Origin: Candidatus Bathyarchaeota archaeon
GTDB lineage: Archaea > Thermoproteota > Bathyarchaeia > 40CM-2-53-6
DNA: 64,000 nucleotides
NCBI GenBank assembly: GCA_963726255.1
Contig: CAVSBL010000002.1
Span: forward strand, 448,001-512,000
Direction: 5' to 3'
The notes below the pieces were generated by a model that worked only from the letters and a program-made list of their open reading frames with translations, was not told the DNA's origin and made no database searches. A program made the translations under genes and the position numbers. This document shows positions 935-44,774 of the stretch, in pieces (position 1 is the stretch's first letter; each line of letters begins with the position of its first letter).

Positions 935-974
935 GGCTGTTTGCGTAGTACTCATGGTGCGCACACACACAGCC
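935..974. repeat. Family-A site (tRNA CCA-end reverse complement TGGTGCG plus TG/CA-rich arm), fold-back form
   Basis: GGCTGT..TGGTGCGCACACACACAGCC, shared with about 12 other intergenic sites. Confidence 0.55.
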
Positions 975-1626
975 CTTACGGTGACAACCTCAACGGTCTG
1001 CGCACCAGCTCATAAGGTACCCAATATCCTCGCTAGTACCAGAAACCCAAGTCGGAGCTATAGAATCTGGACAAGCCAGTGGACTCTTTCGCAAACGTCT
1101 TGAATACAGCCTGAAAGAAACAGGCCTGCATGAATGCGCGACTAGCGGTATCGTGTTTTGCTGTCAGTAAAGAAGCGGTGATCGTTTTGAACCATTGAGA
1201 GATTCCCGCTAGTAAGCGGGGCAGACCTGCCGGATTTGTAACGGCGACCAACCCCTCAGATATGGAAGGAATTAGGCGAGTTTTGGAGTGCCCAGGTCAA
1301 CGTCGGATTTGTGCTCTCGCAGCAGATTATCGATGACAACAATCCAATCAGCCTATTATCTCTAGAGGTGCAGGCTGACTTGGAGGCATGAATTGAATGC
1401 TTGGTTCGAGCGGTTACGTCACGTATTCGAAATGTGGGTTGTTCTTGTTTTCACTCGGTATCCGCATCTCTTAATGATGGATCGATACTCGGAGGAAAAG
1501 GCCCAGATCATGACTAGACTGTCGAACGAGACCAGAACGAAGAACTCAAGGAGCAATAAATCCTCCCGACTTTAGACTGGCTCCTTTCTTGTGCGAATTG
1601 GAGTGCCCTGATTGAACTGACGTTCC

Positions 1627-1677
1627 GGTGTGTGTGGGTCTAGTGGTGCGAGCAGTGGAATTTGAACCGTCGTCGTT
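1627..1677 (-). repeat. Family-A site: tRNA 3' remnant (T-arm, acceptor strand, CCA) plus trailer
   Basis: Reverse complement reads GGTTCAAATTCCACTGCTCGCACCA-CTAGACCCACACACAC. Confidence 0.7.
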
Positions 1678-1744
1678 CGTAGTTAGTGAAGGTATGTAGG
1701 CGCACCAAGGGTACCAAATATGTCTGACCGCACGTGCGCGCTTC

Positions 1745-2944
1745 CTAGGTCGCCGCTGGAGTTGGTTCTTTGATTTTGAACCAGATTATGAAACCGATTA
1801 TGATAGCTAGGACTAGGTTGAGTATGAAGGGGGATTGTGGTGATATGTTGTCCCACATCCACCCACCTAGGATTGGGGACACGGCTGATGCCATGCCGGC
1901 AACGAGCGCCAGTATCCCAAACGTCTGACCGTACCTCTCTCGCCCGTAATGCAGAACAATGTGAGCGTTTAGGGCGGGCATCCACAAACTGTAGACGAAA
2001 CCAGCGAACACGGCGGATATGTACGCGAACTCAGGTCTCCAACCCAACAAAAGCGGCAGAAAACAACCAATAGCGGACCATTCACTAGCCGCCAGGAAAG
2101 GCCTCCCGCCGAGCTTGTCGAGCTTGGAACCCAACGTGAAACCCGTCAGCGCTGGGATTCCAGCGGAGATTGCCAATGCTATCCCTAACTGTTCTGGGGT
2201 AGATTTCATCTCTTTGAAAATATACAACGCCCAGAAGGGGAAGCTGATTCTCCATGCGACTGAATCGAGCGCTACTACCACCAGCAAAGGTATGAGGCTT
2301 TTGTCGGGGCGTAGGAACCCCCACCAAGACCCGGCTGCGGCTTCGGTTCGCTGGATTGGCTCTGGTTTGTAGCCCAGAGCCACGACTCCGAGAGCAGTTG
2401 CAACGAGAACGGCGGAAGTTGTGAAAATTATTTGTCTCGGGAGACCCATCGTGGTCGCTAAGAAACCCCCAAGGAGCGGTGCCAGTGTGGCGGCCGTTTC
2501 AGTTATGCCAAGGTCAATGCTGAAAATCTTTCCAAGTCCCTGCGTTGTGGTTGCGTGGCCGAGCGCCGCGTATGAAGCTGTCCCACGAATCGCCTGGTCC
2601 AAACTCACTAGCACGATGCCCGCGCCCAACAGAACCCAGTATGTGGCGAAAGAGTACGAAAAGAAACCAACCAGCGTCACGAGTCCCCCTACGAGAATGA
2701 AGGGTTTTCGCCCAATTCGATCAATCAAGACACCAATGGGCAAGCGAAGAAATGTGGCGCCCAGGCCTCCGATGGTTTGAGCTTGACCCACGAATGTTAT
2801 GCTAACCCCGATGGCGACGATTAACGGCGCGACGGAGGGAGAGCTGAAGCCAACCGCGAACCCGAAAAGCCCATCCACCATTATCAGGAGTAAGATCTCA
2901 CCCCTGAACAAACTAGGCCGAGCAATTGGGCTCGTCGGATACAC
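1745..2944 (-). CDS. MFS transporter
   Basis: About 12 TM segments; motif A GVLIDRIGRK. Confidence 0.9.
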   Translation of the reverse strand: MYPTSPIARPSLFRGEILLLIMVDGLFGFAVGFSSPSVAPLIVAIGVSITFVGQAQTIGGLGATFLRLPIGVLIDRIGRKPFILVGGLVTLVGFFSYSFATYWVLLGAGIVLVSLDQAIRGTASYAALGHATTTQGLGKIFSIDLGITETAATLAPLLGGFLATTMGLPRQIIFTTSAVLVATALGVVALGYKPEPIQRTEAAAGSWWGFLRPDKSLIPLLVVVALDSVAWRISFPFWALYIFKEMKSTPEQLGIALAISAGIPALTGFTLGSKLDKLGGRPFLAASEWSAIGCFLPLLLGWRPEFAYISAVFAGFVYSLWMPALNAHIVLHYGRERYGQTFGILALVAGMASAVSPILGGWMWDNISPQSPFILNLVLAIIIGFIIWFKIKEPTPAAT

Positions 2945-3164
2945 CCCGAAGCAAACTCGGACACGAAGAGACTATTTCTGGATGTCCACTCATTGCCGGC
3001 AGCGATTTCGAACGTAAAAGAACCGGGCAATGCGGGCTCTGTTCGGTTTATGGCTGTTCGTGTCGGTTGTTCGGCATCGGCGGATGTTTATTCAGAGTTT
3101 TTCATGTCACGCGCCCACATTATACTATATAGTCTTCGAATGAGAAGTAACAGGGAGAGGAAAC

Positions 3165-3497
3165 ATGAAGATTGATGGAGTCGCGTTCTCCATAACCGAG
3201 TGGAGTGCAGTTGAGCCTGTTGAACATAGGGGAGAGAAGGGTTCAGCCTATTGGCGCACGTTGGAGACCGGAAACGTGCGCGTTCGAATCGTCGAATACT
3301 CCCCTGGGTACGTTGCGGATCATTGGTGCACTAGGGGACATGTGCTCTTGGTTCTGGAGGGAGAGTTAGTCACGGAGTTGAAGGATGGAAGAAAATTCAC
3401 GCTGAAACCTGGTTGCAGCTACCAAGTCGCAGACGACGAAAGAAATCCACACAAGTCAAGTACAGAGAAGGGCGCCAAACTGTTCATCGTCGACTAG
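3165..3497 (+). CDS. DHCW-motif cupin protein
   Basis: YSPGYVADHWCTRGHVLLVLEGEL. Confidence 0.9.
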   Translation: MKIDGVAFSITEWSAVEPVEHRGEKGSAYWRTLETGNVRVRIVEYSPGYVADHWCTRGHVLLVLEGELVTELKDGRKFTLKPGCSYQVADDERNPHKSSTEKGAKLFIVD

Positions 3498-3615
3498 GCT
3501 GTGTGTGCTCTATCTGGTGTGACTGAATGTTCGTTAGAGCCACTGAGCATAACAATCTTTAAACTAATTATGACTAGCCACAATCCATTGAGACAGCTCG
3601 GGGAAAAAAGCAGGG

Positions 3616-4817: not shown

Positions 4818-4843
4818 GCAGCACGTCCCATTCACCGGTCACC

Positions 4844-4882
4844 TTTCGTGTGTGTGGTGCGGTCTCGTGGTGCGCACACACA
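4844..4882. repeat. Family-A site, fold-back form
   Basis: TTTCGTGTGTGTGGTGCGGTCTCGTGGTGCGCACACAC. Confidence 0.65.
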
Positions 4883-4937
4883 ACCCTCAAGAGCCCAGTA
4901 ATCGTCCCTGAAGATGCGAGGAGAAACATGTCAGAGC

Positions 4938-5087: not shown

Positions 5088-5124
5088 GCTTCTTATTTCC
5101 CCACATCATGTGCGGAGCTTTGCA

Positions 5125-5150
5125 TGTGTGTGCGCACCATTAGACCCCCC
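5125..5150 (+). repeat. Family-A site, inverted orientation
   Basis: TGTGTGTGCGCACCATTAGACCCC. Confidence 0.65.
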
Positions 5151-5534: not shown

Positions 5535-5557
5535 ACTTAATGTTAGGGAGTTCCACG

Positions 5558-6034
5558 CTAGGTTTTCGCTTCAGCTCTCCTCGCTAGGATTTGTCTGATT
5601 TCGATTGGGAGCTGAGGCTCGTAGCTCACTTGAAGCATCCACCGTAGTAAGTCGCGTTCCGAAACGAGACCGACAAGTTCCTCTCCATCGATGACTGGGA
5701 GCCTTCGGATACCGTGCTTAGCCATAAGATAAACGGCTTTGTCTATAGAAGTGCCCGGGGTTGCAGTAATAAGCGGACCTGACATTACTCGCCTCACTGG
5801 GGTTATCAGAAGATTCGAGCTCTTCGCAACTCTTCGAGACACATCACGTTCCGTGACAATTCCTACAGGTTTCTTACCTTCGACAACTACCACACACCCG
5901 ATGTTTTTCTTGACGATCTTCTTGAGCGCGTATTGAAGAAGGTCGGTCGGTTTCACGGTTTCAACGGGGCTAACCATTACCGATTCTACGCAGTCAACAA
6001 AACTTCCAGGCTCTCTCTTCCTCATCACGCGCAT
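5558..6034 (-). CDS. CBS-domain pair protein
   Basis: VVVVEGKKPVGIVTERD and IRRLPVIDGEELVGLVSERD. Confidence 0.92.
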   Translation of the reverse strand: MRVMRKREPGSFVDCVESVMVSPVETVKPTDLLQYALKKIVKKNIGCVVVVEGKKPVGIVTERDVSRRVAKSSNLLITPVRRVMSGPLITATPGTSIDKAVYLMAKHGIRRLPVIDGEELVGLVSERDLLRWMLQVSYEPQLPIEIRQILARRAEAKT

Positions 6035-6121
6035 CCCAACTACGGCCCAACACCTTCAGGTATTACTTCTAAGAGTTGCCGTATGTTACTTTCTTACTCG
6101 CAGCGGCGACGGAGATACGAC

Positions 6122-6292
6122 TTTTTCGTGGTGCGTGTGCGCACCGACCTACCCACATCCACTAAAACACGCCTCCGGACTCCATGAATAGAACATGGGA
6201 TTCAGGAGTTGGAAAGCTTATCCGCTCTTTGCATCGTTATTTCACTGTTTAGTCAAGGCTTCCCTGTGCCCCTAACGGGGCGCACACACACT
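6122..6292. repeat. Two family-A sites (6122-6155 and 6266-6292)
   Basis: TTTTCGTGGTGCGTGTGCGCACC; TGTGCCCCTAACGGGGCGCACACACAC (compare 44698 TGTGTGCCCCTAACGGTGCG). Confidence 0.55.
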
Positions 6293-6371
6293 TTCAAGAC
6301 ATGAAGGACGACGGTCCGAATTACGAGGGGGGCACCAGGTAACGCCGGGGTCGTCCCTGTTCAACAGCCCA

Positions 6372-7073
6372 TCACTTGGCCAGGGATACCAGGTCCTTGG
6401 CCAGCTCTTCAGGTTTCGTAATCATCGGCCAATGAGCTGTTTCAATGAGATTGTAGGGGCCTTCCAGCTTTCCCCACTTCCCGGCAATTATCTCGTCGAC
6501 TGGGTCCCCGCTGAGACTGCAGAAGACGTATGCCTCCTTCACCTCGTCGTAGTTCTTTGACAGCGTGATCGGGTCGGTCGCAAGTCTAATCGGCCAGGGT
6601 GTCGCCATGGACATCATCCATTTTCGGTTTGAGCCTCTGACATCCTTTCCGATGCGGTCGATAATCTCCTCGGTGAGTGGAATTGCAGTACCGCCCTGGG
6701 GCGGAGACCCGAACTCGCGCGTAGGGTCGAACCCACCCTGCGGCGTCCTCACCTTCTCTGGTCGGAATGCATCAACGTAGATGACCGTCTCTACCTTTTG
6801 GTGTACGCGGTCCGCCACGGCGGCCACCACTTTGCCCGCAAAGCTGTGCCCCACCAGAACGCAAGCGTCAAGATCGTTGTACTTGATCACGTTGATGACA
6901 TCCTGGATGGCGGTCTCCATGCCGACATCTTTCGTGGCAAGGTGGACCCTTTCGCCCATTCCAGTCAATGTGACTGGATAGGCAGAATGACCCTCTTTCT
7001 CGAGGAGTGGAGTTACCTCCTTCCAGGCCCACGCCCCCAACCATGCGCCTGGAACTAGCACGAATCTTACCAT
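6372..7073 (-). CDS. Alpha/beta hydrolase (methylesterase/SABP2-like)
   Basis: FVLVPGAWLGAWAW, GHSFAG nucleophile elbow, HWPM; start set at ATG 7073. Confidence 0.9.
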   Translation of the reverse strand: MVRFVLVPGAWLGAWAWKEVTPLLEKEGHSAYPVTLTGMGERVHLATKDVGMETAIQDVINVIKYNDLDACVLVGHSFAGKVVAAVADRVHQKVETVIYVDAFRPEKVRTPQGGFDPTREFGSPPQGGTAIPLTEEIIDRIGKDVRGSNRKWMMSMATPWPIRLATDPITLSKNYDEVKEAYVFCSLSGDPVDEIIAGKWGKLEGPYNLIETAHWPMITKPEELAKDLVSLAK

Positions 7074-7229
7074 GGGGACCCTTGGGGATAGCTCGCTACA
7101 TAAGTCTCTCGAATGTAACCTCTGGTCAGAGGGTTGTGTGAAAATAATGCACGAGGGAATCCAACCGTGTTCTCGTGGCATATGACATCATACGCATGGT
7201 GTCGAATCACACCTCACTCGCAAAGCCGA

Positions 7230-7255
7230 GTGTGTGTGGGTCTATTGGTGCGCCG
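7230..7255 (-). repeat. Family-A site
   Basis: GTGTGTGTGGGTCTATTGGTGCG. Confidence 0.7.
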
Positions 7256-7413
7256 CCCCCGCCGCGGGCTTAATGACCTTGACGACGCCGACGAAGACGA
7301 ACGATTACGACGACGCTAATACGAACGACGACATGATTGCTTACGAACGACAAGAACTCTTCAACGAGAACCTACAGAACAGTTCTTCATTGCGTATGAG
7401 TATGAAGTGACTG

Positions 7414-8967
7414 TTGAACAATCGAGTCTCTCGGGTGCGAGTTGAGGAAAGGCTCTATATCAACCGGCTCGGCTATCTTAGCCGAATACGACATCAGGTA
7501 ACCGTGAACCCTTTGCAACCAGCCGACTTCGCCCGGTCGAAGAGCTTCATCCCACCCGCATTCTCCTCAACGAAGCCGACGCTTGATAAGAACAGGGTTG
7601 CAGTCCTGCCGTTACAAAACATGAGCCCCGACCCCGCAGATGAATACTTCGCGGATGGCATGACTGAGGAGCTGATTGACAGACTTTCCCAAGTGAAGAG
7701 TCTACAGGTCATAGCTCGAACGTCGGTGATGAATTACAAGAAGAAAGAGAAGAATGTCTCCGAAATTGCAAAGGAGCTTAGCGTGGGTTCAGTGGTTGAA
7801 GGTAGCGTGAGGAAAGCGGGCAACCGGGTCAGAGTCACAGTTCAGCTAATCAGCGCAGAGACCGAGGCGCACCTGTGGTCCTCCCACTACGACAAGAATC
7901 TGGACGACATCTTCGCTGTCCAGAGCGAAATAGCGGAGAAGGTGGTTGGCGAGCTGAAGACCCAACTACTCGACTCTGAGAAAAGGACCCTAGAAAAGAA
8001 GCCGACCGAGAACACGGAGGCGTACACCTGCTTCCTGCGGGGTAGGGAGCTGTACAATGAGGAGACTGAGACCTCGTTTAGGCAGGCCCTCAGCCTCTTC
8101 GAGAAGGCCATCGTGCTGGATCCCAAGTTCGCGAAGGCCTACGTGGGAGTCGCAGACTGCCACCAATCGCTTGTTGGAAGCGGATGCGAGCCCGATGACA
8201 TCGGACTCCCAATTGTGAACACCTCGCTGGAGCGCGCCATTGAACTCGACCCGAACCTTCCGGAGGCCCACGCATCACTCTGCGGGATGTTCTTCAACGC
8301 GGACGACTCCGTGCGGTCGGAGGCAGAGGCGAGGAGGACTTTGGAGCTCAACCCCAGCCTCCCAGACCCCCACAATATCCTAAGCGAGCTAGCTGCGCTC
8401 AAAGGGGACCAAGGAGAGATGGTCAAACAAATGGAGGCAGCGTACCGACTCGACCCCATCAGGCCCCACCTCATCTGGCTTCTCGGGATGGTGTACCTCT
8501 ATACTGGGAAGGAGGAGGAGGCGCTTGAGCTCTGGAAGAAGACAGAGCAGTTGGCGCCGGCGCCCAGGTACAGAGGCATGGTTGAGTACTACCTGGCCAA
8601 GAGGGAGCTCGACAAGGCTAAGGAGTTCCACGCGAAAGCCGAGAAGCTTGAACCCACCCGTCCCTGGCTCTTCTGGACGAGTGGAGTCATCGCGGCCATA
8701 GAAGGCGACAGGGAGAAGGCGCTGCTCGCGTTCAAGAAGATTGAGGACGCCAAGATGGGCCCGATGGGCTTCAACTTCATCGGGTACGTCCATTATGCCC
8801 TCGGAGACCTGAACTCATTCTTCGCGTACATGGATAAGGCCCTCGAAGCCCATGCACTAGTTACCCTAATACTGATGTACTCGCCGCTCTTCGCTCAGGC
8901 AAGAGCCGACCCACGATATCCGGAACTGGTCGAGAGAATCCGGAAGCAGTGTGGCCTAACGAAATAG
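7414..8967 (+). CDS. TolB-like domain plus TPR protein; the adenylate/guanylate cyclase N-domain usual in this family is absent (possibly 5'-truncated)
   Basis: RVAVLPLQNMSPDPADEYFADGMTEELI, VEGSVRKAGNRVRVTVQLI, TPR repeats; true start uncertain. Confidence 0.8.
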   Translation: MNNRVSRVRVEERLYINRLGYLSRIRHQVTVNPLQPADFARSKSFIPPAFSSTKPTLDKNRVAVLPLQNMSPDPADEYFADGMTEELIDRLSQVKSLQVIARTSVMNYKKKEKNVSEIAKELSVGSVVEGSVRKAGNRVRVTVQLISAETEAHLWSSHYDKNLDDIFAVQSEIAEKVVGELKTQLLDSEKRTLEKKPTENTEAYTCFLRGRELYNEETETSFRQALSLFEKAIVLDPKFAKAYVGVADCHQSLVGSGCEPDDIGLPIVNTSLERAIELDPNLPEAHASLCGMFFNADDSVRSEAEARRTLELNPSLPDPHNILSELAALKGDQGEMVKQMEAAYRLDPIRPHLIWLLGMVYLYTGKEEEALELWKKTEQLAPAPRYRGMVEYYLAKRELDKAKEFHAKAEKLEPTRPWLFWTSGVIAAIEGDREKALLAFKKIEDAKMGPMGFNFIGYVHYALGDLNSFFAYMDKALEAHALVTLILMYSPLFAQARADPRYPELVERIRKQCGLTK

Positions 8968-9091
8968 AAGTCGCGTTTAGTCTAGTGACTGTAGAACCTT
9001 CAACCAACCGTTCTACCGCTTGGCCTTCTGCATTATGATTTGATTGTCCGTTAGCGATATCAGCACGGTATCACCGGCTTTTAGAGTAAGA

Positions 9092-9125
9092 GGGTCTAAT
9101 GGTGCGGGCTACCAAAATTGAACCG
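9092..9125 (-). repeat. Family-A site
   Basis: GGGTCTAATGGTGCGGGCTACCAAAATTGAACCG. Confidence 0.7.
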
Positions 9126-9156
9126 AAAGTTCCGGTAGTTTTCAGTGGAAGAAGTT

Positions 9157-9210: not shown

Positions 9211-10125
9211 TTAGAAGCCGAAGTATTCGTCTGGAATGAATTTTGCATCCGGGTCGATGCATCTTTTGATCAGGTCCATCGGCAGGAAGCAATTCTCTTC
9301 TTCAAAGAACTCAGCTTCGAACTCCCTTCGAAACCGGTCTCGGGGAATCCTACGCCGCATCTCCTCAACGAAATCAGTTGTGGTTAGGCCAGCTTTGATT
9401 ACGTCGTCGATGCTGATCTTGTGGACCTTGAAGGCTGGGTCTTGTGTGAACTGGTAGAAGACCGAGTTCTTTACCCAGGGTGTGGATGAGGCGATTAATG
9501 TGCCCTGGGTGGTTTGGAGCATGGGAAAGAGCACGCTGTAGAACATCGTCTCGTCATCACGAAAGAAGGCGCACTCGTCGCAGATGCATTGATTTGCGCT
9601 GTAACCCCGCAGCAAGTTCGTGGAGCAGGGCAGAGCGATGATTTGCGAGCCATTCTTGAACCATATGACAGTTCGCTGTATCTTCCCGATGTACTCTCTG
9701 CGAATTGGTCGGGGCATAGCCATCAGGAAGGAGTGGACCCGGTCCATCATGATCATGCTTTGCCGAAACCCAGGGGCGACGATGAGCGTCACGGTCTTGG
9801 AGTTTCTGCATGCGAACCAGATGGCCCTAGCTGCGATCGTCATGGACTTTCCCGATTGCCGTGGGTAAATGACAACGATTCGCTTCCCTGTCTCCCGGAG
9901 AAGCTTGGCTTGGTATTCGGCCGGATTGAATTTCAACGCCTTCTGAGCGAAAAGAACAGGGTCCTCAAGGTCCTGTTCCGAAAGCTGCTCAAATGGTGAT
10001 GAGCCTTCTCCAGGATCCTTCCCTGCGACGATCCTCTCGAAGGCTATTCTACGCCTTTCCTGTAGCCGTTTTTGCTTGTTCTTCGAGCTGTCTGGTAGCT
10101 TCCTCAAATGCCCTCTGCTCCTCAC
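9211..10125 (-). CDS. Terminase large-subunit-like ATPase domain (no nuclease domain)
   Basis: YQ motif, Walker A PRQSGKS, Walker B ICDECAF, motif III ASSTP, FRREFEAEF. Confidence 0.85.
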   Translation of the reverse strand: MRSRGHLRKLPDSSKNKQKRLQERRRIAFERIVAGKDPGEGSSPFEQLSEQDLEDPVLFAQKALKFNPAEYQAKLLRETGKRIVVIYPRQSGKSMTIAARAIWFACRNSKTVTLIVAPGFRQSMIMMDRVHSFLMAMPRPIRREYIGKIQRTVIWFKNGSQIIALPCSTNLLRGYSANQCICDECAFFRDDETMFYSVLFPMLQTTQGTLIASSTPWVKNSVFYQFTQDPAFKVHKISIDDVIKAGLTTTDFVEEMRRRIPRDRFRREFEAEFFEEENCFLPMDLIKRCIDPDAKFIPDEYFGF

Positions 10126-10681
10126 GAAGCTTCGTGATCTCCGCTAGAATCTCTTCTTCTGCGGCGCCGCGAAGAATCATCTCGTTTGTTGCAGCCGTAT
10201 GCGCTAAGAGTCCATACATGGCAGCACGCATCTGGTTCTGCGCGGCGAGTTGCTCGCATTGTGAAAGTTCGTAAATCTGATCGAAGGCGGTTTCCATCTT
10301 CTGGTATAATTTGTTCCTGCGCTCTTGCCGTGCTTGGGCTGCATGAACATTCACCGATCCTTTCTGTTCTTTGAGTGGTTGCTTGTAGGCTTCGGCGAGG
10401 GCTTGGTGGATGAGGCTGTTGGCGTAGCGGAGGCGTTCCAGGATATTTGAGTTGACTGTTAGCTTCGACAAGTGTCGCCAAAGAGCCTCCTCAACGATGC
10501 GGCTTCGGGTCATGTGTTTGTAGTCTGCGGCTTCCTGTAGGGCGAGGTATTGTGTTGCGGATAGTTGGAGTTGCATACGGAAGCTGCGCGGGAAGCCTGT
10601 GATGCGTTTGCGGTGCACCCGCCCCCGGTGGGTTGAAATGTAGCCTATTCGCGGGCGAGATGATGTGGTTTCGGCCTGCAT
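10049..10681 (-). CDS. Hypothetical helical protein (RHH-like segment, coiled coil) upstream of the terminase
   Basis: 210-aa ORF overlapping the terminase start; TRSRIVEEALWRHL. Confidence 0.6.
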   Translation of the reverse strand: MQAETTSSRPRIGYISTHRGRVHRKRITGFPRSFRMQLQLSATQYLALQEAADYKHMTRSRIVEEALWRHLSKLTVNSNILERLRYANSLIHQALAEAYKQPLKEQKGSVNVHAAQARQERRNKLYQKMETAFDQIYELSQCEQLAAQNQMRAAMYGLLAHTAATNEMILRGAAEEEILAEITKLREEQRAFEEATRQLEEQAKTATGKA

Positions 10682-10746
10682 AATGGCGCCATTCCAGCTT
10701 TGCCTTGGTCAATTGTCTACTCGCACGCTTGCTGGTTGGGGGAGCA

Positions 10747-10770
10747 AATAGGTTTATTGGTGAACCTATT
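10747..10770. promoter_or_regulatory. Inverted repeat (candidate operator) between divergent genes
   Basis: AATAGGTT-N8-AACCTATT. Confidence 0.4.
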
Positions 10771-10796
10771 GTACCTATCACGGACGGTGGGTACAG

Positions 10797-11543
10797 TTGA
10801 GGTCGAGAGGGCATGAGGTTAGGGCGGAAGACCCAGACCGCCGATTCATGGTCCTATACGCGATTCAGCGAGGAGCGAAGCGTTTCAACCAGATCTGGTT
10901 CGATAGCGAAGTCAGGGACGTGATCCATAGTAGGCTTACGCTCTCGCGGTACTTGAAAGCGCTAGAGAAGGAGGGCGTAATCAAGCGCAGCCCTGTATCG
11001 CACAAACATGTTGAATACGAGATTGCCGCAGGCGAACAGAGCAGTTGGGTGCTCGCCGCACAAGAGTCAGGTTTTGTCCCCTTCGACATTGAAGTGTTCC
11101 AGTTGATACTCAAGAGCATACGGGACAAAGCAAGCGGCTTGGACATAGCGTTGAACTACGCTTTCAGACGATTCTTTGAAGAAGAAATCAACGACGCCAC
11201 CGCCAAGATCATGGGCGGCATGCCCCAATACCGAAAACCCCTAGCCGAAGCCATGAAACTCACACATACCCCACACGAGAAAATTAATGAGGATTGGAGC
11301 GATGACATGATCACGTGGAGGTCAAGACGATACTACATGTTCCTGAAAAATCTACGGAGTTTGCTGCTCGAGGAACCTGAACATGTGGAGATATACCTTA
11401 AGGAAAGACCGTGGCTACGCCGGCCGAAAGAAAACAGGAATGGTGCCATTCTACATATAGAACGAATCTTGGCAGAGAAATACCCTCACACGCCGGGCGG
11501 GCTCGAACTCAAACACGCACTGAGGCAGGGAGAAAAATCGTAG
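10797..11543 (+). CDS. Winged-helix DNA-binding protein
   Basis: KRFNQI..SRLTLSRYLKALEKEGVIKR..VEYEI. Confidence 0.75.
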   Translation: MRSRGHEVRAEDPDRRFMVLYAIQRGAKRFNQIWFDSEVRDVIHSRLTLSRYLKALEKEGVIKRSPVSHKHVEYEIAAGEQSSWVLAAQESGFVPFDIEVFQLILKSIRDKASGLDIALNYAFRRFFEEEINDATAKIMGGMPQYRKPLAEAMKLTHTPHEKINEDWSDDMITWRSRRYYMFLKNLRSLLLEEPEHVEIYLKERPWLRRPKENRNGAILHIERILAEKYPHTPGGLELKHALRQGEKS

Positions 11544-11576
11544 TTCGGGAGTGCTCGAGTTGCAGTCCCACGAATC

Positions 11577-11604
11577 GTGGGTTCGAATCCCACCGGCCCC
11601 ACTA
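11577..11604 (+). repeat. Family-B tRNA 3'-half remnant (Pro/Trp-like acceptor strand)
   Basis: GTGGGTTCGAATCCCACCGGCCCCACTA; no matching 5' half. Confidence 0.75.
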
Positions 11605-16845: not shown

Positions 16846-16947
16846 TTGACGGCTTTGACTCCGACAAACTTGGCACCGAACAACTCGCTCAAGCGAGCGT
16901 TCGCGCGATAGCTTCGATACTGGGACTAGCCAGAAGCCACGATATTC

Positions 16948-16975
16948 GAGGGTTCGAATCCCTCCAAGCCCACGA
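16948..16975 (+). repeat. Family-B tRNA 3'-half remnant (variant)
   Basis: GAGGGTTCGAATCCCTCCAAGCCCACGA. Confidence 0.6.
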
Positions 16976-17097
16976 CCCAAGCAGACTCCGGTGACGATAT
17001 TTGTTTGTGTGGAACGATAAGTGTGGTTGGTGGGGGAAGACGCCGGCGCGCGGTTGCAAGGCAGCCGGCGAGAGGCACAAACTCCCGCCAATAATAC

Positions 17098-17210
17098 GCG
17101 GGGGTTGCCAAACCTTCGTTAACCGCTCACTTCACTTACCAGTTGCCTAGTGCTTAGGGATGTTGATTGTACCCACGATATTGGTGGGTACAAATCCCAC
17201 GGGCCCCACC
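17098..17210 (+). repeat. Chimeric tRNA-like element, copy 1
   Basis: GCGGGGGTTGCCAAACCTTCGT...ACCCACGATATTGGTGGGT-ACAAATCCCACGGGCCCCACC; both blocks recur at 24641-24740. Confidence 0.65.
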
Positions 17211-17349
17211 TTCTGCAGCGTGTTTTCTGGATGGGGCACAAGGGCATTCCTTGACTGATTCCAAAAGATTTCCTAGGCTGCCACTTTTATCTACATGCCG
17301 TCTGGATTCAATCTATTGCGTTGTTCGGAGAATGAAGCTTTAAGTTACC

Positions 17350-18087: not shown

Positions 18088-18291
18088 CTAGTGGACACTT
18101 TCCGCCTTAACTACGCGATGCCAACGAGTACGACCACATTTAGGACATGGAATATACGCTTTCGTAGAAGTCTTAAGTACAAGATATGCGGGCCAGCCCC
18201 AACGAATCCACATTAACCCTTCCTTAATCTGCACGCAACCGCAAGTGAGACACATAACCTGGTACTCAACCATCTTCCTTCTCTTCCTCAC
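18088..18291 (-). CDS. Small zinc-ribbon protein
   Basis: CLTCG..CPKCG; GGAGG upstream. Confidence 0.55.
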   Translation of the reverse strand: MRKRRKMVEYQVMCLTCGCVQIKEGLMWIRWGWPAYLVLKTSTKAYIPCPKCGRTRWHRVVKAESVH

Positions 18292-19266: not shown

Positions 19267-19517
19267 TCGAACCGCCTCATGTCAACTATTTCTAACGTAC
19301 GAACTAGTTAACATTGCGTGCTGAGAACCGACGATGAACATCGAGCAGTTGGACTCTAGTCGACAGCCTATCGAACACGGCTACTCGTGCGGGCTGTTCT
19401 CGAACTCACGCTAATGATTCAGGACAAGGACACATAATACGTGATTGAGGGCAGTTTGTCCGAGGGAAACGACCCGATTAATCTTCCCGGGTTCATCGAG
19501 TGAAGGGGAGAATCACT

Positions 19518-19544
19518 GGGGTTCAAATCCCACCGGCCCCACCA
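19518..19544 (+). repeat. Family-B tRNA 3'-half remnant with CCA
   Basis: GGGGTTCAAATCCCACCGGCCCCACCA. Confidence 0.78.
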
Positions 19545-19606
19545 CGCGACACATCGTGGCTCGGTGGTTCTTCATAAGGGCCGCAGACCCTTGAACTCTA
19601 CATCTA

Positions 19607-23423: not shown

Positions 23424-23450
23424 CCGGGTTCAAATCCCACCGGCCCTACG
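23424..23450 (+). repeat. Family-B tRNA 3'-half remnant
   Basis: CCGGGTTCAAATCCCACCGGCCCTACG. Confidence 0.72.
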
Positions 23451-23492
23451 ACTTTCGTGGGTTCAATCGAAACCCATATACGCGGCCTAGGC

Positions 23493-24389: not shown

Positions 24390-24417
24390 GGGAGGTTCAA
24401 ATCCCAACGGTCCTACG
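24390..24417 (+). repeat. Family-B tRNA 3'-half remnant (degenerate)
   Basis: GGGAGGTTCAAATCCCAACGGTCCTACG. Confidence 0.55.
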
Positions 24418-24640
24418 ACGTGCACCTGTTGCGTTAAGGGCTAGTCGACTTCACGGGCTTCGAAAGAAACCGAATTTCTGCGGAAGGAATACGCCAAAGT
24501 CGAAAAACGGTTCTTCGTATGAGCGTTGTCCGTTAATGCTATTTGGGCGTGTGGAGTGGTGATTGCGTTCGACGGGAGAGTGGCCCTTGGTCTGGTTGCA
24601 AACGACCTGCCGAAGTTGTCTAACCTTCATATGAAAACAT

Positions 24641-24740
24641 GCGGGGGTTGCCAAACCTTCGTCGAGGTTTTTGGCCAGTCGTAAAGTAGAACCCTCATGG
24701 AACCCACGATATTGGTGGGTTCGTATCCCAATGACCCCAC
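24641..24740 (+). repeat. Chimeric tRNA-like element, copy 2
   Basis: 22-bp and 19-bp blocks identical to 17098-17119 and 17171-17189. Confidence 0.65.
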
Positions 24741-24830
24741 GACTGATCGCGTCCTATCTTGCTGCAAACTAAGAACAGAAACGGTTCAAAATGAGGCGAT
24801 GAAGTAGCCCCACCGAGAATTTCAATTAAG

Positions 24831-24847
24831 TCCCACCGGCCCCACCA
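24831..24847 (+). repeat. Family-B tRNA 3'-end remnant
   Basis: TCCCACCGGCCCCACCA. Confidence 0.6.
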
Positions 24848-27065: not shown

Positions 27066-27171
27066 CTAGATCCGCCCTATCTGGACCGTCTGCAGCTCCC
27101 CACAATAAGAGGAAGCCCTGTCCCATGGAAACCGCACAACAAGCAGATCTCTAGAGGCCAGAACTTCGTAA

Positions 27172-27404
27172 CGGTCGGAAGTGTTAAACATGCAATAGCG
27201 ACATTAGATCTACATGTGATTTCTGTGCCGAAGAAGAAGAAACCAAAGAAGAAAAAGTAACCAAAGAACCAAGCATTTCCATTGCGGCAACGAGCAAGTT
27301 GAAGTAGGTAAGTTAGAGCCCCCGAAGCTCTTCCACTGAAACCCTACTGCCCCTAGGAACCTATGTTTTTTAGGCGATGAATGCCGCATTCGCGGATGCG
27401 GTGC
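27172..27404 (+). repeat. About 230-bp repeat, copy 1 (contains micro-ORF 27225-27260 MPKKKKPKKKK and a GC hairpin)
   Basis: Highly similar to 36014-36244. Confidence 0.85.
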
Positions 27405-27520
27405 TCTCTGGCTTGCACCTCGCGGCCACACTACGCCCGGAAGGGACTCACGCTTGTCAGATTCTGGAGTAGGGGCGCCGCTTCCCATTCATTGTTAGAA
27501 CGGCTTGGCAGGAGTCCAGT

Positions 27521-27953
27521 GATGAGGAAGATGAGAAACACGTGTCTCGAGTACGGGTGCGTCAAATGCTGTTTGAATACGGATATGCTGCTGAGCAGTT
27601 CAGACATCGTTCGCATAATGGGCCTTGTTTTCTCTGAGGATTTCTTCATCGTCAAGAAGAACGGGAACCGCCAGCTCAAGAATCTGTCGGGGAGATGCGT
27701 CTTTCATAACGGTCAGCGATGCACCATCTACAATTATCGGCCTGAAGGTTGTCGGCTGTACCCTGCCATTTTCTATGAAGACACGGGAGAAACAGACCTC
27801 GATTCATACTGCCCACATCACGGAAAGTTTCAATTGACGCCATGTATTCACGCGAAGTCATCAAACTCATTCAAAAATTGGATGTGGAGACGAAGAGACG
27901 ACTCAGATCACGTTGACTTGGTCTCGCCGTTGTTCGCACAAATGTCAGTCTGA
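27521..27953 (+). CDS. YkgJ-family cysteine-cluster protein (probable frameshift near the 3' end)
   Basis: CLEYGCVKCC..RCVF..CTIYNYRPEGCRLYP. Confidence 0.8.
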
Positions 27954-28849: not shown

Positions 28850-29081
28850 GGACCTCTATAGTCCGCTCACCTAATAGACGTCCCTATCAGGAATCGCAAA
28901 CAGCAAGCCATCAAATCCGCCACAAAAACCGAAGTGTTGTTGCGACATCACTGAGAGCCAACATGGTATTCTACCATAGGAGCATGCGGAACGTAGGGTT
29001 CAATCGTGAATGGCATCAGCTAAGGATTGGAGATAACTTGGAAGTCACACTGAAAACGTAGCGAGTTTCAGTAGACGTCAG

Positions 29082-29123
29082 TTTTCGTGTGTGTGGGTAA
29101 CGTGGTGCGGGCAACCAAATTTG
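29082..29123 (-). repeat. Family-A site
   Basis: TTTTCGTGTGTGTGGGTAACGTGGTGCGGGCAACCAAATTTGG. Confidence 0.7.
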
Positions 29124-29177
29124 GACAAAAGGATGCAAGTGAAGGAAAGATATCCGATCCACACTAAAGCAGGGGCT

Positions 29178-35993: not shown

Positions 35994-36013
35994 GCCAAAT
36001 GACCGCTTCGTGG

Positions 36014-36329
36014 CGGTCGGAAGTGTTAAACATGCAATGGCGACATTAGATCTACGCGTGATTTCTGTGCCGAAGAAGAAGAAACCAAAGAAGAAAAAGT
36101 AACCAAAGAACTAAGGATTTCCTTTGCGGCGACGAGCGGGTCGAGTAGGTAAGTTCCGCGAAGCTCTTCCACTGAAACCCTACTGCCCCTAGGAACCTAC
36201 CTATGTTTATTATGTGATGAGTGCCGCATTCGCGGGTGCGGCGCCCTTCGGTCTTACCTCAAGTATTTCATGCGGAGTCATCAACTTCGTCCGAAAATTG
36301 GATGTGGAGACGAAGAGACGACTCAGATC
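36014..36329 (+). repeat. About 230-bp repeat, copy 2 (micro-ORF 36067-36102), followed by only the 3' tail of the YkgJ gene
   Basis: Matches 27172-27404 and 27846-27910. Confidence 0.85.
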
Positions 36330-36497
36330 AGGGAACGCTGAACGTCGAGGCATCTGACGTCCTTTCGCCGGTGTTCCGTGACCGACTCTGTATGGCGAAC
36401 ATTTGGTCTTGGCTTGGGTCGAAAGCAGTTGCCCCCGATGGTGAGGCACGTTAAAATGGAGAGTCGGGCTGTCACCTTGTAGGATAGGCAGTGTGGA

Positions 36498-37630: not shown

Positions 37631-37744
37631 ATGATGTCTAGGTTCGAAAAGGAAGGACACCGATTTGTGTGCGATAAGTGTGGTTTCGAAACGAACAGTT
37701 CAGAGATCTTCCCTTTACACAAGAAGAATTGTCCCAGAATTTAG
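37631..37744 (+). CDS. 37-aa C2HC zinc-finger microprotein
   Basis: FVCDKCGF..HKKNC. Confidence 0.5.
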   Translation: MMSRFEKEGHRFVCDKCGFETNSSEIFPLHKKNCPRI

Positions 37745-37750
37745 TTTCCT

Positions 37751-37783
37751 CTGCCCGCACCATATGACGCACGCACACGAAAA
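37751..37783 (+). repeat. Family-A site, inverted
   Basis: CTGCCCGCACCATATGACGCACGCACACGAAAA. Confidence 0.65.
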
Positions 37784-37935
37784 CGTTTGACAAGAAACTG
37801 AGATTTCCCGTCATTACCGGTGCTAGAATGTTCGCCTAGTATCTTCGGCGCTTCTGGTAGCACTCTCTACAGTAGACCGGTTTACCCGACGTTGGCACAA
37901 ACGGTACTTGCGTATTTGCGCCGCGCGGCGGTAAT

Positions 37936-38055: not shown

Positions 38056-38082
38056 GTGGGTTCAAATCCCACTGGCCCACCA
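38056..38082 (+). repeat. Family-B tRNA 3'-half remnant
   Basis: GTGGGTTCAAATCCCACTGGCCCACCA. Confidence 0.75.
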
Positions 38083-38106
38083 TCAACGAACCGCTGTCTC
38101 AATAAG

Positions 38107-41451: not shown

Positions 41452-41608
41452 GTCGTATCGTAGCTATGCGCGTGGCGAGGTATTTATAAAACTAGTTTTC
41501 TAGTTGTATTCTCGAAAGACAGGGTAAACCATATACTCATTCCGAGATTGTCCAAAGTCTTGGTTGAAGTAAACATGAGTTTGATGCAATTATCAGGAGG
41601 AGAATAGG

Positions 41609-42241
41609 ATGAGCACACAGCTTATTCCACCTGAATGGGCGTGGGAGTTTCATGGACATCAGTGTCCCTTCATGCCTATCGGATACCGGATGGGCAAGCT
41701 GGCCATGCAGTACTTGGGCGTGGAACATGAAGCCGACCACGGCTTTTTCGTCTTTCCCGAACTGGGTGAAGGCCACCCGCAGACGTGTATGATGGATGGC
41801 ATGCAGGTTGCGACAGGCGCGACTTACGGCAAGTTGCTTATGGCGAAGACGTTCTACGGGAAACTAGCGGCCACCTTCTACCATAAGAAGAAGGGCGCCG
41901 TGCGCTTCTCGCTGAAACCTGAATTTGTTGACGCAATGGGGAAGTTCGAGTTCTTCGCCTACCGCAAGAAGGGAGTTGAGCCTTCTCAGATTCCACTGCC
42001 GGTGCGGCAGGAAGTAATCAACTGGGTTAACGACCAGCCTGACGATGCAATCTACAAGGTGGAGGCTAAACCGGATTTCACGTATACTCCGCCGAAAGGT
42101 TCGTTCAACAAGACCAAGTGCAATGTTTGCGGAGAATACGTGTTTGAACGATACGTTCGCTTCAAGGACGGGCAACCAGTGTGCATCCCATGTTCGGGCT
42201 TCACGGACTCAAGGCTGGGTGCCTTAAAGGGCACGCAATGA
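41609..42241 (+). CDS. FmdE-family protein with C-terminal zinc finger
   Basis: FHGHQCP, CMMDGMQ, CNVCGE..CIPC. Confidence 0.9.
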   Translation: MSTQLIPPEWAWEFHGHQCPFMPIGYRMGKLAMQYLGVEHEADHGFFVFPELGEGHPQTCMMDGMQVATGATYGKLLMAKTFYGKLAATFYHKKKGAVRFSLKPEFVDAMGKFEFFAYRKKGVEPSQIPLPVRQEVINWVNDQPDDAIYKVEAKPDFTYTPPKGSFNKTKCNVCGEYVFERYVRFKDGQPVCIPCSGFTDSRLGALKGTQ

Positions 42242-42251
42242 GACCATCGAT

Positions 42252-43025
42252 ATGAGCATCACACTTCTACTTGTGGTCACCATTGTCTTTGTCTTTTTGA
42301 TAGGTTTCGTATTCTCGATGTTCGGGCAGGGTGGAGGGTCGGTATACTCCCCGACGATGTTCCTGCTTGGTTACGCAGTGTTGCTTGCTACGTCCACTTC
42401 CCTAGTGTTGAACCTAATAACATCGGTCTCTGCGGGCTACATTTTCTACCGTAACAAGATGATTGACTTCAAAACGTCCCTCATATTCGTGCCGGGTATC
42501 TGCATCGGCGCCCTGCTAGGAGGAGCTCTGGGCAATTTTGTCGATACACACATCTTGCTGTGGCTGTTCGTCTTTTTCCTGGTTGGTGTCGGAGCTAGGT
42601 CTATCTACACCTATTGGGAAAGGGCGCAGGCCGAGAGAGATCAGCCTCCAACAGACTTCTCCGCCGCCATGTACGTGCTCATCTTGTCCGTCAGTTTCGT
42701 CGTAGGATTTATCTCCGGCCTGCTGGGGGTCGGCGGCGGCATACTCATCGTTCCTTTCATGGTCTTCGTTTGTAAGTATCCAGCGAAGTGGGCGGCTGGA
42801 TCTTCACATCTGATTATATCCTTCTCAGCACTTTTCGGAATAATAGGTCATTCGGCATTTGGCAGTCTCGATCTTCCATTGATTGCGGCGACTGGTGTGG
42901 CCGTTCTCATTGGTGGAAATCTAGGGGCGAGAACCAGCATGAAGTTCAAATCTGGAGCGATAAAGGCCGGGCTGGGTCTTATAATGTGGGCGCTTGCCGC
43001 CCAGCTCCTAGTGAAGCTCCTATGA
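42252..43025 (+). CDS. TauE/SafE sulfite-exporter family protein
   Basis: GQGGG and GLLGVGGGILIVP. Confidence 0.9.
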   Translation: MSITLLLVVTIVFVFLIGFVFSMFGQGGGSVYSPTMFLLGYAVLLATSTSLVLNLITSVSAGYIFYRNKMIDFKTSLIFVPGICIGALLGGALGNFVDTHILLWLFVFFLVGVGARSIYTYWERAQAERDQPPTDFSAAMYVLILSVSFVVGFISGLLGVGGGILIVPFMVFVCKYPAKWAAGSSHLIISFSALFGIIGHSAFGSLDLPLIAATGVAVLIGGNLGARTSMKFKSGAIKAGLGLIMWALAAQLLVKLL

Positions 43026-43229
43026 TACATGGAGGGGTACATGAAGCGAGGATGGATCACATTGCTAGGTCTGTCAGGACGTTTGCGGGAACCTGATTGC
43101 TGAGCGGCGCCATCCAGAAGAAACCGACGATCGTTCCGGGAAGGAAGATAGAGGCGAACTTGAAATCCACAAGTTTGTTCCGTGCGAACACGACCGTGGC
43201 AGTAAATTCTTCCCGTACTGGCTGTTGTG

Positions 43230-43430
43230 TTACTCAGGGTTTTCTCGTCTTTCGCGCCATAGTTTCGTCTCATCTTGAGCAAGCCCTTCGTGGCGGTGCT
43301 CCCCAGCCATATGCTTGGGGTAATCATCCTCGCAAAATAGTTGACCGCAGTACGGACATTTCTTGAGCTTCTCGAGCGGAAATTCTTTCCCGCACATTGC
43401 ACATTTAGGCAATATCCAATCCCACACCAA
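43230..43430 (-). CDS. AN1-like zinc-finger protein
   Basis: CAMCG..CPYCGQLFCEDD..H. Confidence 0.6.
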   Translation of the reverse strand: MVWDWILPKCAMCGKEFPLEKLKKCPYCGQLFCEDDYPKHMAGEHRHEGLAQDETKLWRERRENPE

Positions 43431-43532
43431 TGCGTGGTACCCACATTAGAAGGAAACGGTAGAAAAGCATCGCGTGTGCAAGTCTTTGTCGGGAACTGCG
43501 TTGAGCGTTTCATGTCCTATTGCGAGGGATAA

Positions 43533-43718
43533 TTATCGGACTCTGATTGCGTATCTACCGGGTTTAGTGATGCCTAGTTTCTTCGCAACTTCGGACGCAG
43601 CCGGGTCGATTATAACGATTAGGCCACTCCAGTCATCGCTTAGGTCCGTTGAACCACAGTTGGGGCAAACGGGCCCATTGCTTATGAATTTGCAGTTTCT
43701 GCAGGCTTTTTCAGTCAA
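43533..43718 (-). CDS. spt4: Transcription elongation factor Spt4 (RpoE'')
   Basis: ACRNC..CPNCGS..SDDWSG..PGRYAIRVR. Confidence 0.95.
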   Translation of the reverse strand: MTEKACRNCKFISNGPVCPNCGSTDLSDDWSGLIVIIDPAASEVAKKLGITKPGRYAIRVR

Positions 43719-44199
43719 GTAATATTCTCTTCTCAGCCAGACTTTCCTAAATCAGCATGCGACAATCCAATCGAGGTGGGATTGAGATTAAACTGCCGCA
43801 TCCCTACAACTGTCCAGAGACAATTGCAAAGTGCTCTTATTAGCATGACGTGTCTGGTTAATTCTCGGCAGAATAACTGTGGGATACGGAAAAAACAATG
43901 CATTGGCCATAATTCCTGTCAGGCCCGATTTTGTTACTGGGCAATCTTCCAATTCACGGTTACGGTTTCGTTGGAGAAACTCACAACATACCGGTACAGA
44001 ACACATGACGTGATCCTGTACCGGAATAGGGCGCACCGATCCTTGCGCGCCATGGAGATTCAGCTGAAACCAGACCGATATCCCACATTGCCCAGCCGCC
44101 GTTTCGTCATGCCCTGCCGCCCCGTCTGCGGCTTAGATCTTAGACGCGTTCACTTCACATGCCTCCACTGCAGAATCAGAAGAATTCACTCGGGAAAGA

Positions 44200-44662
44200 T
44201 CCCACCCCTCAACGAACTCGAGGATACGCACACGATCTTGGTTCCGAGGGACGACCTGCTTTGGCCTTACACGATTTACATCTTCAAGAATCAGAAGCTT
44301 GCCGCAATTAAACGGGTTCTGTTGAAACAGTTCATTAGAACCGCGGTAGCTCAGGTCCGAAATGGACGTCTCTTGAAGCGTATTCTCACAGGGTGTGAGT
44401 TTATCGCCAACTAACGGAGGTGGAGACACGCAGATCAAGGAATACACTGTCACTAGCAGAATACCACGCTGAGTATGCTTCCCCATCTGACCTTCTTCAA
44501 TATGAAAACGAGGTGGGTCGAACTTTCAATCTTCCACTGTCAGGATTCTGTATCTACAACGCTCGTAGGCTCGTCGACCTTGGCCTACACGAACTTCTGT
44601 TCAGTCTGTTCAAGCCGCATGGCCAAATCATCGCTAAGGGCCTAGCATCCTCTCAAGGCTAG
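44200..44662 (+). pseudogene. MEDS-domain remnant
   Basis: LLQYENEVGRTF..GFCIYNARRL..H; upstream part interrupted. Confidence 0.45.
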
Positions 44663-44690
44663 ATGCCTTTGACCGAAAGAAGGTAGAAAA

Positions 44691-44774
44691 TTTCGTGTGT
44701 GTGCCCCTAACGGTGCGGGGAGCGAAAGTTGAACCGTCGTCCGTTTGGCTTCGTGTGCGTGGGTCTAATGGTGC
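44691..44774 (-). repeat. Two tandem family-A sites
   Basis: TTTCGTGTGTGTGCCCCTAACGGTGCGGGG..TTGAACCGTCGTC and TTCGTGTGCGTGGGTCTAATGGTGC. Confidence 0.75.

Follow-up and report, generated by a model that had tools for sequence, protein, structure and literature searches.

What are the short sequences resembling the 3' end of a tRNA that lie between the genes of a 64,000-nt stretch of a Candidatus Bathyarchaeota archaeon genome (contig CAVSBL010000002.1, positions 448,001 to 512,000; hereafter the window)? A first-pass annotation, made from the sequence alone, had listed 13 such intergenic sites and had read them either as att sites of a tRNA-targeting recombinase reused to capture and shuffle genes in an integron-like manner, or as a tRNA-derived repeat comparable to MITEs (miniature inverted-repeat transposable elements) or SINEs (short interspersed nuclear elements). 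According to our analyses, they are best described as a short, non-coding repeat family, dispersed and modular, of a Bathyarchaeia lineage. The reading that we prefer, with a probability of roughly 0.55, is that of an archaeal repeat similar to repetitive extragenic palindromes (REPs) and bacterial interspersed mosaic elements (BIMEs), with an unusual module resembling a tRNA end, which acts as a landing pad for an insertion sequence (IS) of the IS110 family and as a recombination junction.

The repeat is a modular unit of 49–65 nt that is given here as P-O-P' on the tRNA-sense strand, i.e., as the reverse complement of the consensus in the first-pass annotation, which was itself correct. Module P (GGTTCAAATT-N4-TGCC) equals, by sequence, the T-loop and the 3' acceptor strand of a tRNA; module O (CGCACCA) equals the acceptor end plus CCA; module P' reads nTAGACC-(CA)4-5-GAAAA, the first base of its nTAG tag being variable. 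CGCACCA together with P' forms the constant part, and the sequence 5' of CGCACCA sets the class. Scanning a species-representative genome collection with the 18-mer TGTGGGTCTANTGGTGCG gave at least 118 loci, numbered in the style of L001, and all counts on these loci refer to the matches listed. Scored on all 118, class I accounts for 43 loci, in which GGTTCAAATT-N4-TGCC precedes the core and there is no palindrome. Class II accounts for 41, with (TG)n in place of P and inverted arms of about 13 nt around an asymmetric centre of 14 nt; these are the 'fold-back' forms of the first-pass annotation, which prove to be a regular class. The other 34 include class III, tRNA ends, C-run variants and chance matches. 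Class III is G/C-rich (L017, L062, L078, L115 and window position 7230), and in L040 and L108 genuine tRNA ends stand in place of P-O. Conservation within class I takes the form of two invariant blocks flanking four free positions, and the arms of class II are almost invariant (TG)n/(CA)n. Copies occur singly, in tandem or inverted, with a neighbouring unit within 60 nt at many loci; in L076, head-to-tail units without cargo give a 49-nt period in Tandem Repeats Finder. Another stretch of L076 (3232–4018) holds five tandem 159-nt units within a long, DUF7671-like open reading frame (ORF), which L003 (1–374) also matches.

In the window, direct reading of the cores confirmed that all 13 listed positions bear the described sequence. 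The 14-mer GGTCTAATGGTGCG matched six times with up to two mismatches, compared with a mean of 0.30 in 100 shuffled sequences, none of which reached six; at three mismatches the excess was weak (9 vs 4.15, with 2 of 100 shuffles reaching 9). Moreover, two nhmmer profiles were built from copies of other genomes only, excluding the window as well as L040, L077 and L078, its near-identical relatives; at E<0.05 they recovered 10 of the 13 sites (at 954, 1627, 4844, 5124, 7229, 9092, 29084, 37740, 44707 and 44750). Site 6122 was borderline in this search, and sites 3498 and 6266 matched neither profile. The former, already called weak in the first-pass annotation, is by eye a decayed look-alike, while the latter is conserved in L078. 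Two partial copies were found beyond the original list, at about 997–1025 and 1697–1720, and a repeat search of the window sorted the copies into families D5, D6 and D15. The copies, and the tRNA gene that shares their core, are as follows, the strand being that on which CGCACCA reads:

951–975, minus strand: class II (palindromic) copy, the plus strand reading TGGTGCGCACACACAC; 0 mismatches, profile model II E=1e-4.
997–1025, plus strand: weak partial copy (GCGCACCA..GGTACC), inverted relative to the 951 copy; 3 mismatches at 994–1007, no profile match.
1622–1690, minus strand: complete class I unit (P-O-P'), CGT/ACG-rich tail, best of the window copies; E=2e-14, D5/D6.
1697–1720, plus strand: partial copy (GGCGCACCAAGGGTACC), inverted relative to the 1622 unit; 3 mismatches at 1694–1707, same arrangement in L077.
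3498–3535, minus strand: decayed look-alike with (TG)n, CTCTATC and TGGTGTG; direct reading.
4844–4885, minus strand: class II copy; E=3.4e-7, I18, inverted pair with 5125–5146.
5124–5147, plus strand: class II copy, right arm replaced by C-rich sequence; 0 mismatches, E=1.1e-8.
6122–6160, plus strand: class II variant GTGGTGCGTGTG-CGCACCGACCTACC-CACATCC; E=0.4, identical in L078.
6266–6291, minus strand: class II variant with centre CCCCTAACGGGGCG; D15, 85% identity to the 951 copy, CGGTGCG in L078.
7229–7335, minus strand: class III copy in which CCGCCCCCGCCGC and an ACG-rich, unstable stretch follow the core; E=3.5e-6, indels beside the core relative to L078.
9084–9130, minus strand: class I unit downstream of a tetratricopeptide repeat (TPR) gene; 0 mismatches, E=3.8e-9.
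29081–29133, minus strand: class I unit; E=1.1e-7, D5/D6 and I1.
37740–37784, plus strand: class I-like unit, T-loop part decayed; E=0.03, homology to L108 beginning exactly at CGCACCA.
44695–44741, minus strand: class I variant with centre CCCCTAACGGTGCG; E=1.4e-3, D6.
44750–44785, minus strand: core plus (TG)n arm, joined at the TGGTGC edge to a winged-helix gene copy truncated at its 5' end; E=3.2e-5, D1.
52770–52950, minus strand: multi-intron tRNA-Gly(CCC) gene with encoded CCA, ending ..GGCGGCCGCACCA, a naturally occurring version of the core; counterpart in L040 95% identical.

ARAGORN and Rfam both missed the tRNA-Gly(CCC) gene in the window; it came to light through its L040 counterpart, which ARAGORN called. 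The window is archaeal by gene content (eIF-1A, Cdc48, aEF-2, Fen1, ATP-dependent ligase and diphthamide synthase). In its first 9 kb the sites separate almost every one or two genes, an observation of the first-pass annotation that the gene map bears out; the strands of the genes there are, in order, + - + + - - - +, and cores occur on either strand.

The family is largely confined to one lineage: among the matches listed, 100 of 118 carry a title naming Bathyarchaeota, Bathyarchaeia or archaeon RBG_16_50_20, and these come from at least 23 assemblies. Among the other 18 listed loci, six have the flanking modules of the family (L012, L033, L101, L048, L056 and L090) and twelve look like chance matches. 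A single 1.41-Mb contig carries at least 11 exact matches to the 18-mer. Because only 2 of about 15 window copies match this 18-mer, we infer copies per genome on the order of a hundred, an estimate rather than a count. Several listed loci are cut by contig ends, a pattern that was noted rather than tallied and that is as expected if the repeat breaks short-read assemblies. The class I unit was also sought as an attP site on viruses or plasmids, a candidate that was dropped when no match appeared in phage or plasmid collections, which may hold few or no Bathyarchaeia elements. L048, whose contig bears the title uncultured beta proteobacterium, has a complete class I unit (418–435) at a contig end, 360 nt from clearly bacterial genes (GlnE, YhdP/AsmA), which could reflect a chimeric assembly or a transfer.

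The association with an insertion sequence, unforeseen in the first-pass annotation, emerged from the comparison of these loci. An element of about 1.33 kb, with about 92% identity, is common to L002, L005, L066, L013/14 and L065, and its ORF of 356 aa (L002, 872–1939) matches PF01548 (DEDD_Tnp_IS110, 7e-28) and PF02371 (Transposase_20, 2e-27). Every junction consists of (T)nGTGTGTG, then the element itself, AAAGGATGAAAAGTC...GACTTTTCATAGG, and then TGTGGGTCTAnTGGTGCG. This fixed position in the (TG)n arm is found in five complete copies, whose flanks differ, and in end remnants at L034, L053, L091 and L115. The repeat to the right of the IS belongs to class I, II or III, the flanks beyond it differ as well, and excision of the IS in silico restores an intact repeat. 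The ends of the IS are ATGAAAAGTCT inverted repeats, unlike the modules of the repeat. The IS110-family element is thus shown to insert always at one position of the repeat. IS110 is a family known for RNA-guided recombination. A bridge- or seek-RNA complementarity to the target was considered and rejected as not significant: the longest guide-like match between the non-coding region of the IS and the target was 8 nt, a length reached by 117 of 1000 shuffles. The behaviour of the IS is that known for IS110/IS1111 elements at bacterial REPs, which these elements target according to three reports (PMC1525189, PMC11208160, PMC11187229).

The role of the repeat as a recombination junction was analysed by aligning the window with contigs of an approximately 95%-identical assembly (L040, L077 and L078) and with other loci. 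The collinear block with L077 starts at site 1628, to the left of which L077 carries a TPR gene paralogue together with a degraded fragment of a tRNA-Gly 3' end. A second block of 3.1 kb (5541–8630, 95.5% identity to L078) crosses three sites unchanged. The third ends exactly at the CCA of tRNA-Gly(CCC) (52769/52770), past which L040 has P' and a second degenerate unit, and the window, where no P' follows, has unrelated DNA; L063 and L108 show arrangements related to the tRNA-Gly and P' of L040. Of the three real block ends, two thus coincide with either a site or the CCA of a tRNA. Likewise, positions 300–469 of L108 match window positions 37755–37924 with 89% identity, the homology starting at O (CGCACCA), and a 300-nt internal duplication of the window (11048–11347 and 44770–45069, 92%) starts at the O edge and truncates the winged-helix gene. 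Among loci of different genomes, six non-IS pairs share just one flank, the homology stopping within 5 nt of the pattern or at an arm, and no pair shares both. O-edge junctions occur in the pairs L027/L062, L046/L063 and L002/L014, and in L014/L046 and L037/L051 a shared flank and arm lead into centres of opposing orientation. Homology between genomes is thereby shown to break off often at the edges of the repeat, the CCA of a genuine tRNA-Gly gene included.

Some further observations concern these junctions. Relative to window position 3110, L077 has a 140-nt insertion (3001–3140) in the spacer that separates the MFS gene from the cupin gene; it begins with ACACACACGAAAAA (the arm and tail of the repeat), is flanked on both sides by CGCGCC and has no other copy in the compared DNA. 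The duplicated gene encodes a winged-helix protein of 248 aa with no assigned function (10797–11543), whose 5'-truncated, 92%-identical copy lies at 44729–45265. The full gene ends 15 nt before a tRNA fragment of a second family described below, and the truncated copy is fused to the repeat core. As a hidden recombinase this protein was rejected: Pfam gave only an HxlR-like helix-turn-helix, and PHROGs, PDB and the Atlas (archaeal clusters) added nothing.

With respect to genes, the copies lie outside ORFs (79 of 84 in one set of listed loci and 100 of 103 in another). The spacers of 71 copies were tandem in 38 cases, convergent in 22 and divergent in 11, compared with 126, 50 and 47 in the background (n=223), i.e., the copies are somewhat enriched in convergent spacers (22/71 vs 50/223) and depleted in divergent ones (11/71 vs 47/223). 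Class II copies stand a median of 66 nt past the nearest upstream stop codon and are co-directional with the upstream gene in 17 of 23 cases (17 vs 6; two-sided binomial ~0.035), and class I orientation follows no rule (11 vs 16). The 86 ORFs of the window include no tyrosine, serine or HUH recombinase, in agreement with the first-pass annotation, which had reported no intact recombinase gene there; among 234 ORFs flanking copies elsewhere, neither a tyrosine or serine recombinase nor a Y1/HUH transposase was found. Those 234 ORFs include IS110, IS4/5, TnpB and Cas1 genes, the rest being ordinary or accessory, and the families that recur beside sites are TPR-cyclase, GNAT, MFS, CBS and a degenerate KaiC-like family (five loci). 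The members of the last (L003, L006, L025, L037 and L051) are 233–245 aa long, with a weak KaiC/RecA-like match and mutual identities of 29–64%; each gene lies 30–120 nt from a repeat copy, in three assemblies, and no P-loop was noticed in the N-terminal 80 residues viewed. As their position and orientation relative to the site vary, they were treated as neighbours and rejected as a partner of the repeat.

The likeness to tRNA is one of sequence. In 84 units the T-loop and ..GCACCA blocks are nearly invariant, and GGTTCAA is separated from CCA by 15 nt, a tRNA-like spacing. The T-stem has a mean of 2.56 of 5 pairs, compared with 2.70 in shuffles, and none of five registers was paired above shuffles, by which a folded tRNA-like arm was rejected. 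The fold z-scores of the 13 window segments ranged from -2.2 to +2.0, around shuffle level, 11 of the 13 being no stabler than dinucleotide shuffles, and a stable RNA fold was likewise discarded. Because the T-stem is unpaired and the folds are no better than those of shuffles, the tRNA likeness resides in the DNA word and not in an RNA fold; the T-arm of the first-pass annotation holds as a word, and neither as a paired arm nor as a maintained fold. The identity of the repeat as a tRNA or known RNA family was rejected as well: ARAGORN, with and without introns, found no tRNA in it, Rfam found none at E up to 5, and at gathering and E-value thresholds Rfam placed no known RNA family at the sites. 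A 'tRNA-Ala' called at 10412–11602 by ARAGORN in intron mode had no convincing 5' half and was dropped. Class II copies are predicted to be able to form a stem of 9–13 bp. An RNA-like conserved gene that ends in a class I unit (L027, L055, L059, L092 and L107) gave a weak RNAalifold result (-3.84 kcal/mol).

Under the REP/BIME-like reading, P-O would descend from, or mimic, a tRNA 3' end, and new joints would arise where copies recombine, at the O core of 7 nt and in the (TG)n/(CA)n arms. As each arm is the reverse complement of the other, any two copies could pair in either orientation. The family would then provide the accessory parts of these genomes with a network of breakpoints for rearrangement and of landing pads for the IS, and hairpins in 3' untranslated regions are probably a further fate of class II copies.

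A palindrome is the defining feature of REPs, which usually go with a REP-associated tyrosine transposase (RAYT), an enzyme of the Y1 HUH type. The present family resembles REPs, BIMEs and the related REPINs in being short, non-coding, confined to spacers and present in many single, tandem or inverted copies, in the imperfect palindrome of class II, in the frequent position just past stop codons and in offering specific landing sites to IS110 elements. It differs from them in its archaeal host, in class I, about a third of the copies, which looks like a tRNA T-loop, acceptor and CCA and has no palindrome, in the lack of a fixed GTAG/CGTC tag, in the simple (TG)n/(CA)n arms and, within the 320 ORFs examined, in showing no RAYT.

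Several points weigh against this reading. The 43 class I copies among the 118 listed are not palindromic, and their pattern of conservation, judged by the aligned copies, looks more like a selected protein-binding site than a decaying selfish repeat. No mobilising enzyme was found in the window or the flanks (86 + 234 ORFs), including the Y1 HUH gene that usually goes with REPs. No clean pair of filled and empty sites with a target duplication was seen, and because both enzyme and pair are missing from the material compared, mobility of the unit itself is something that we infer. The left end of the 5541–8630 block, one of the three synteny breaks, has no site. The loci were chosen for the motif and are mostly from different species with barely alignable intergenic DNA, a selection that exaggerates how often homology is found to stop at the repeat. 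Finally, the orientation bias of class II hints at a role at the RNA level.

The first-pass alternative of a MITE- or SINE-like repeat is closer to the evidence than its integron-like one. Its description as a dispersed, multi-copy, intergenic and lineage-specific repeat with a tRNA-like segment stands. In contrast, only the 3' third of a tRNA is present, with no sign of retroposition, and the MITE hallmarks of a target duplication, an autonomous partner and its mobilising enzyme, or identified transposon inverted repeats were not found, although the arms of class II could pass for inverted repeats.

According to the integron-like proposal, a trans-acting recombinase would cross over at the O core, insert and excise segments of 49 nt to several kb with P' at one border and P-O at the other, and use tRNA genes ending in CGCACCA as entry sites. 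We consider this unlikely, although part of the data lends it some support. The window and L040 are 95% identical up to the CCA of tRNA-Gly and then diverge into unrelated DNA and P', respectively, and a tRNA-Gly CCA can replace P-O; the O-edge junctions of the three locus pairs named above, the gene truncated exactly at O (44770) and the degraded tRNA-Gly 3' fragment beside the site in L077 point in the same direction. Tandem units regenerate O at their own 3' end, the segment 44775–52770 is bounded by O and P' on one side and by the tRNA-Gly CCA on the other, and paralogous accessory families recur beside sites. As in the att sites of tRNA genes, the core is identical to the bases with which a tRNA gene ends, where homology stops, the identity block being ..GGCGGCCGCACCA in tRNA-Gly and C/GCGCACCA in the repeat, and the tRNA-Gly end is joined to the trailer in L040 and not in the 95%-identical window. 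However, no tyrosine or serine recombinase was found in the ORFs of the window or beside copies elsewhere, segment 44775–52770 included, and no direct copies flank an integrase-coding element among the flanks. For integration scars the copies are too many; they lie on both strands, form cargo-free tandems without a nearby integrase, and keep invariant blocks in at least 23 assemblies instead of decaying at random. Breakpoints also fall at arms and at one site-less place, and the class I unit was unmatched in the phage and plasmid collections.

Compared with integron attC arrays, the likeness consists in short, recombination-prone sites between single genes and in the fold-back potential of class II. 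The differences are that genes and sites are not co-oriented (gene and core orientations are mixed in the first 9 kb, as is class I orientation elsewhere), that no IntI was found and that the copies are spread over whole genomes; the attC boxes (RYYYAAC/GTTRRRY) are absent according to the first-pass annotation, and Rfam gave no relevant attC-type match for the repeat. PMC9668308 describes archaeal integrons as same-orientation arrays with canonical attC folds, and integron arrays without IntI (CALINs) as existing. In the strain comparison at the sites, two of three block ends coincide with a site or CCA, whereas one break has no site and three sites are stably inherited. What remains of the first-pass reading is the stopping of homology at the O edge and the exchange of P-O for a tRNA end; none of the data demonstrates machinery for gene capture of the integron-like kind.

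A modification- or defence-type module sits in this part of the window, between the repeat sites at 44.7 kb and tRNA-Gly: genes for a mismatch endonuclease resembling Vsr, a C-5 cytosine methyltransferase and an HATPase_c_3 protein of 641 aa (phrog_6203, 2e-109) follow one another on the plus strand (46167–49559).

An element acting at the RNA level, in the form of transcribed 3'-end hairpins or tRNA-like processing signals, is improbable to a similar degree. Such a role would account for the position and co-direction of class II after stop codons and its possible stem, for the enrichment in convergent and depletion in divergent spacers and for the near invariance of the T-loop and ..ACCA blocks. 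On the other hand, the folds and T-stem registers stay at shuffle level, Rfam and ARAGORN are empty, class I copies show no preferred orientation at the 3' ends of genes, and both the junctions and the IS targeting are left unexplained. For class II alone, a role at the RNA level is possible as a side effect compatible with the REP/BIME-like reading.

Rather doubtful, too, is a system with a recombinase acting in trans, in which the 7-nt CGCACCA would be a tRNA-end mimic serving as the crossover at about a hundred sites and at tRNA genes, and the sites would double as IS110 landing pads. The least probable proposal, that the copies are non-autonomous derivatives or solo ends of an unseen autonomous element with ends P' and P-O that inserts 3' of ..CACCA (an IS200/IS605-like single-strand transposon or another IS110/IS1111 member), would suit the variable left neighbour, the constant right part with its sharp boundary at a short fixed word, the regeneration of that word at the 3' end of the unit, which makes tandem insertion possible, and the TnpB, IS110 and IS4/5 genes in the neighbourhoods, but about 270 kb of flanks hold no coding element bounded by P' and P-O, the ORFs examined include no Y1 transposase, and the sole IS with defined ends, the ATGAAAAGTCT inverted repeats, uses the repeat as a target and not as an end.

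The REP/BIME-like family provides an archaeal example of a dispersed repeat as the natural target of an IS110-family element, and it marks points of genome rearrangement in these archaea. It also explains a practical nuisance, the contig ends that cut several of its loci, as expected if short-read assemblies fail at the repeat. REP-like families have been studied extensively in bacteria; we found no earlier account of a REP-like family in Bathyarchaeia in the literature searched. If crossover at the tRNA-end mimic were driven by an enzyme, it would constitute a new route of gene shuffling in archaea, and a recombinase in trans would make the archaeal system functionally analogous to the shuffling of integron cassettes, although other sites and another enzyme would be involved.

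The plus strand of the window carries a second family, made up of tRNA 3' fragments, at 11559–11604, 16930–16981, 17166–17217, 19499–19550, 23426–23457, 24393–24424, 24697–24748, 24828–24847 and 38058–38089. These fragments have a canonical, well-paired T-arm (GGGTTCAAATCCCAC) and an acceptor strand whose sequence varies by copy, and 7 of 8 lack a matching 5' acceptor strand within 450 nt; Rfam detects just the T-arm and acceptor end at 11538–11604. The arrangement resembles a series of integration scars or split pieces within a region of provirus remnants. Two fragments of terminase large-subunit genes on the minus strand (9211–10125, Terminase_6N at 2.8e-16 and several PHROGs; 18088–18291, GpA_ATPase at 2.6e-4) point to putative decayed material of a head-tailed provirus.

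Direct repeats of another kind link 27164–27910 with 36006–36330, about 8.8 kb apart, in four blocks of 44–139 nt with 86–98% identity (D4, D8, D10 and D11), which overlap sequence upstream of eIF-1A and the beginning of a gene with a CxxCxxCC domain. The UbiA prenyltransferase gene on the minus strand (61473–62362) is split into ORFs of 143 and 141 aa that cover the two halves of the Pfam profile, which may be due to a frameshift, a pseudogene or a sequencing error.

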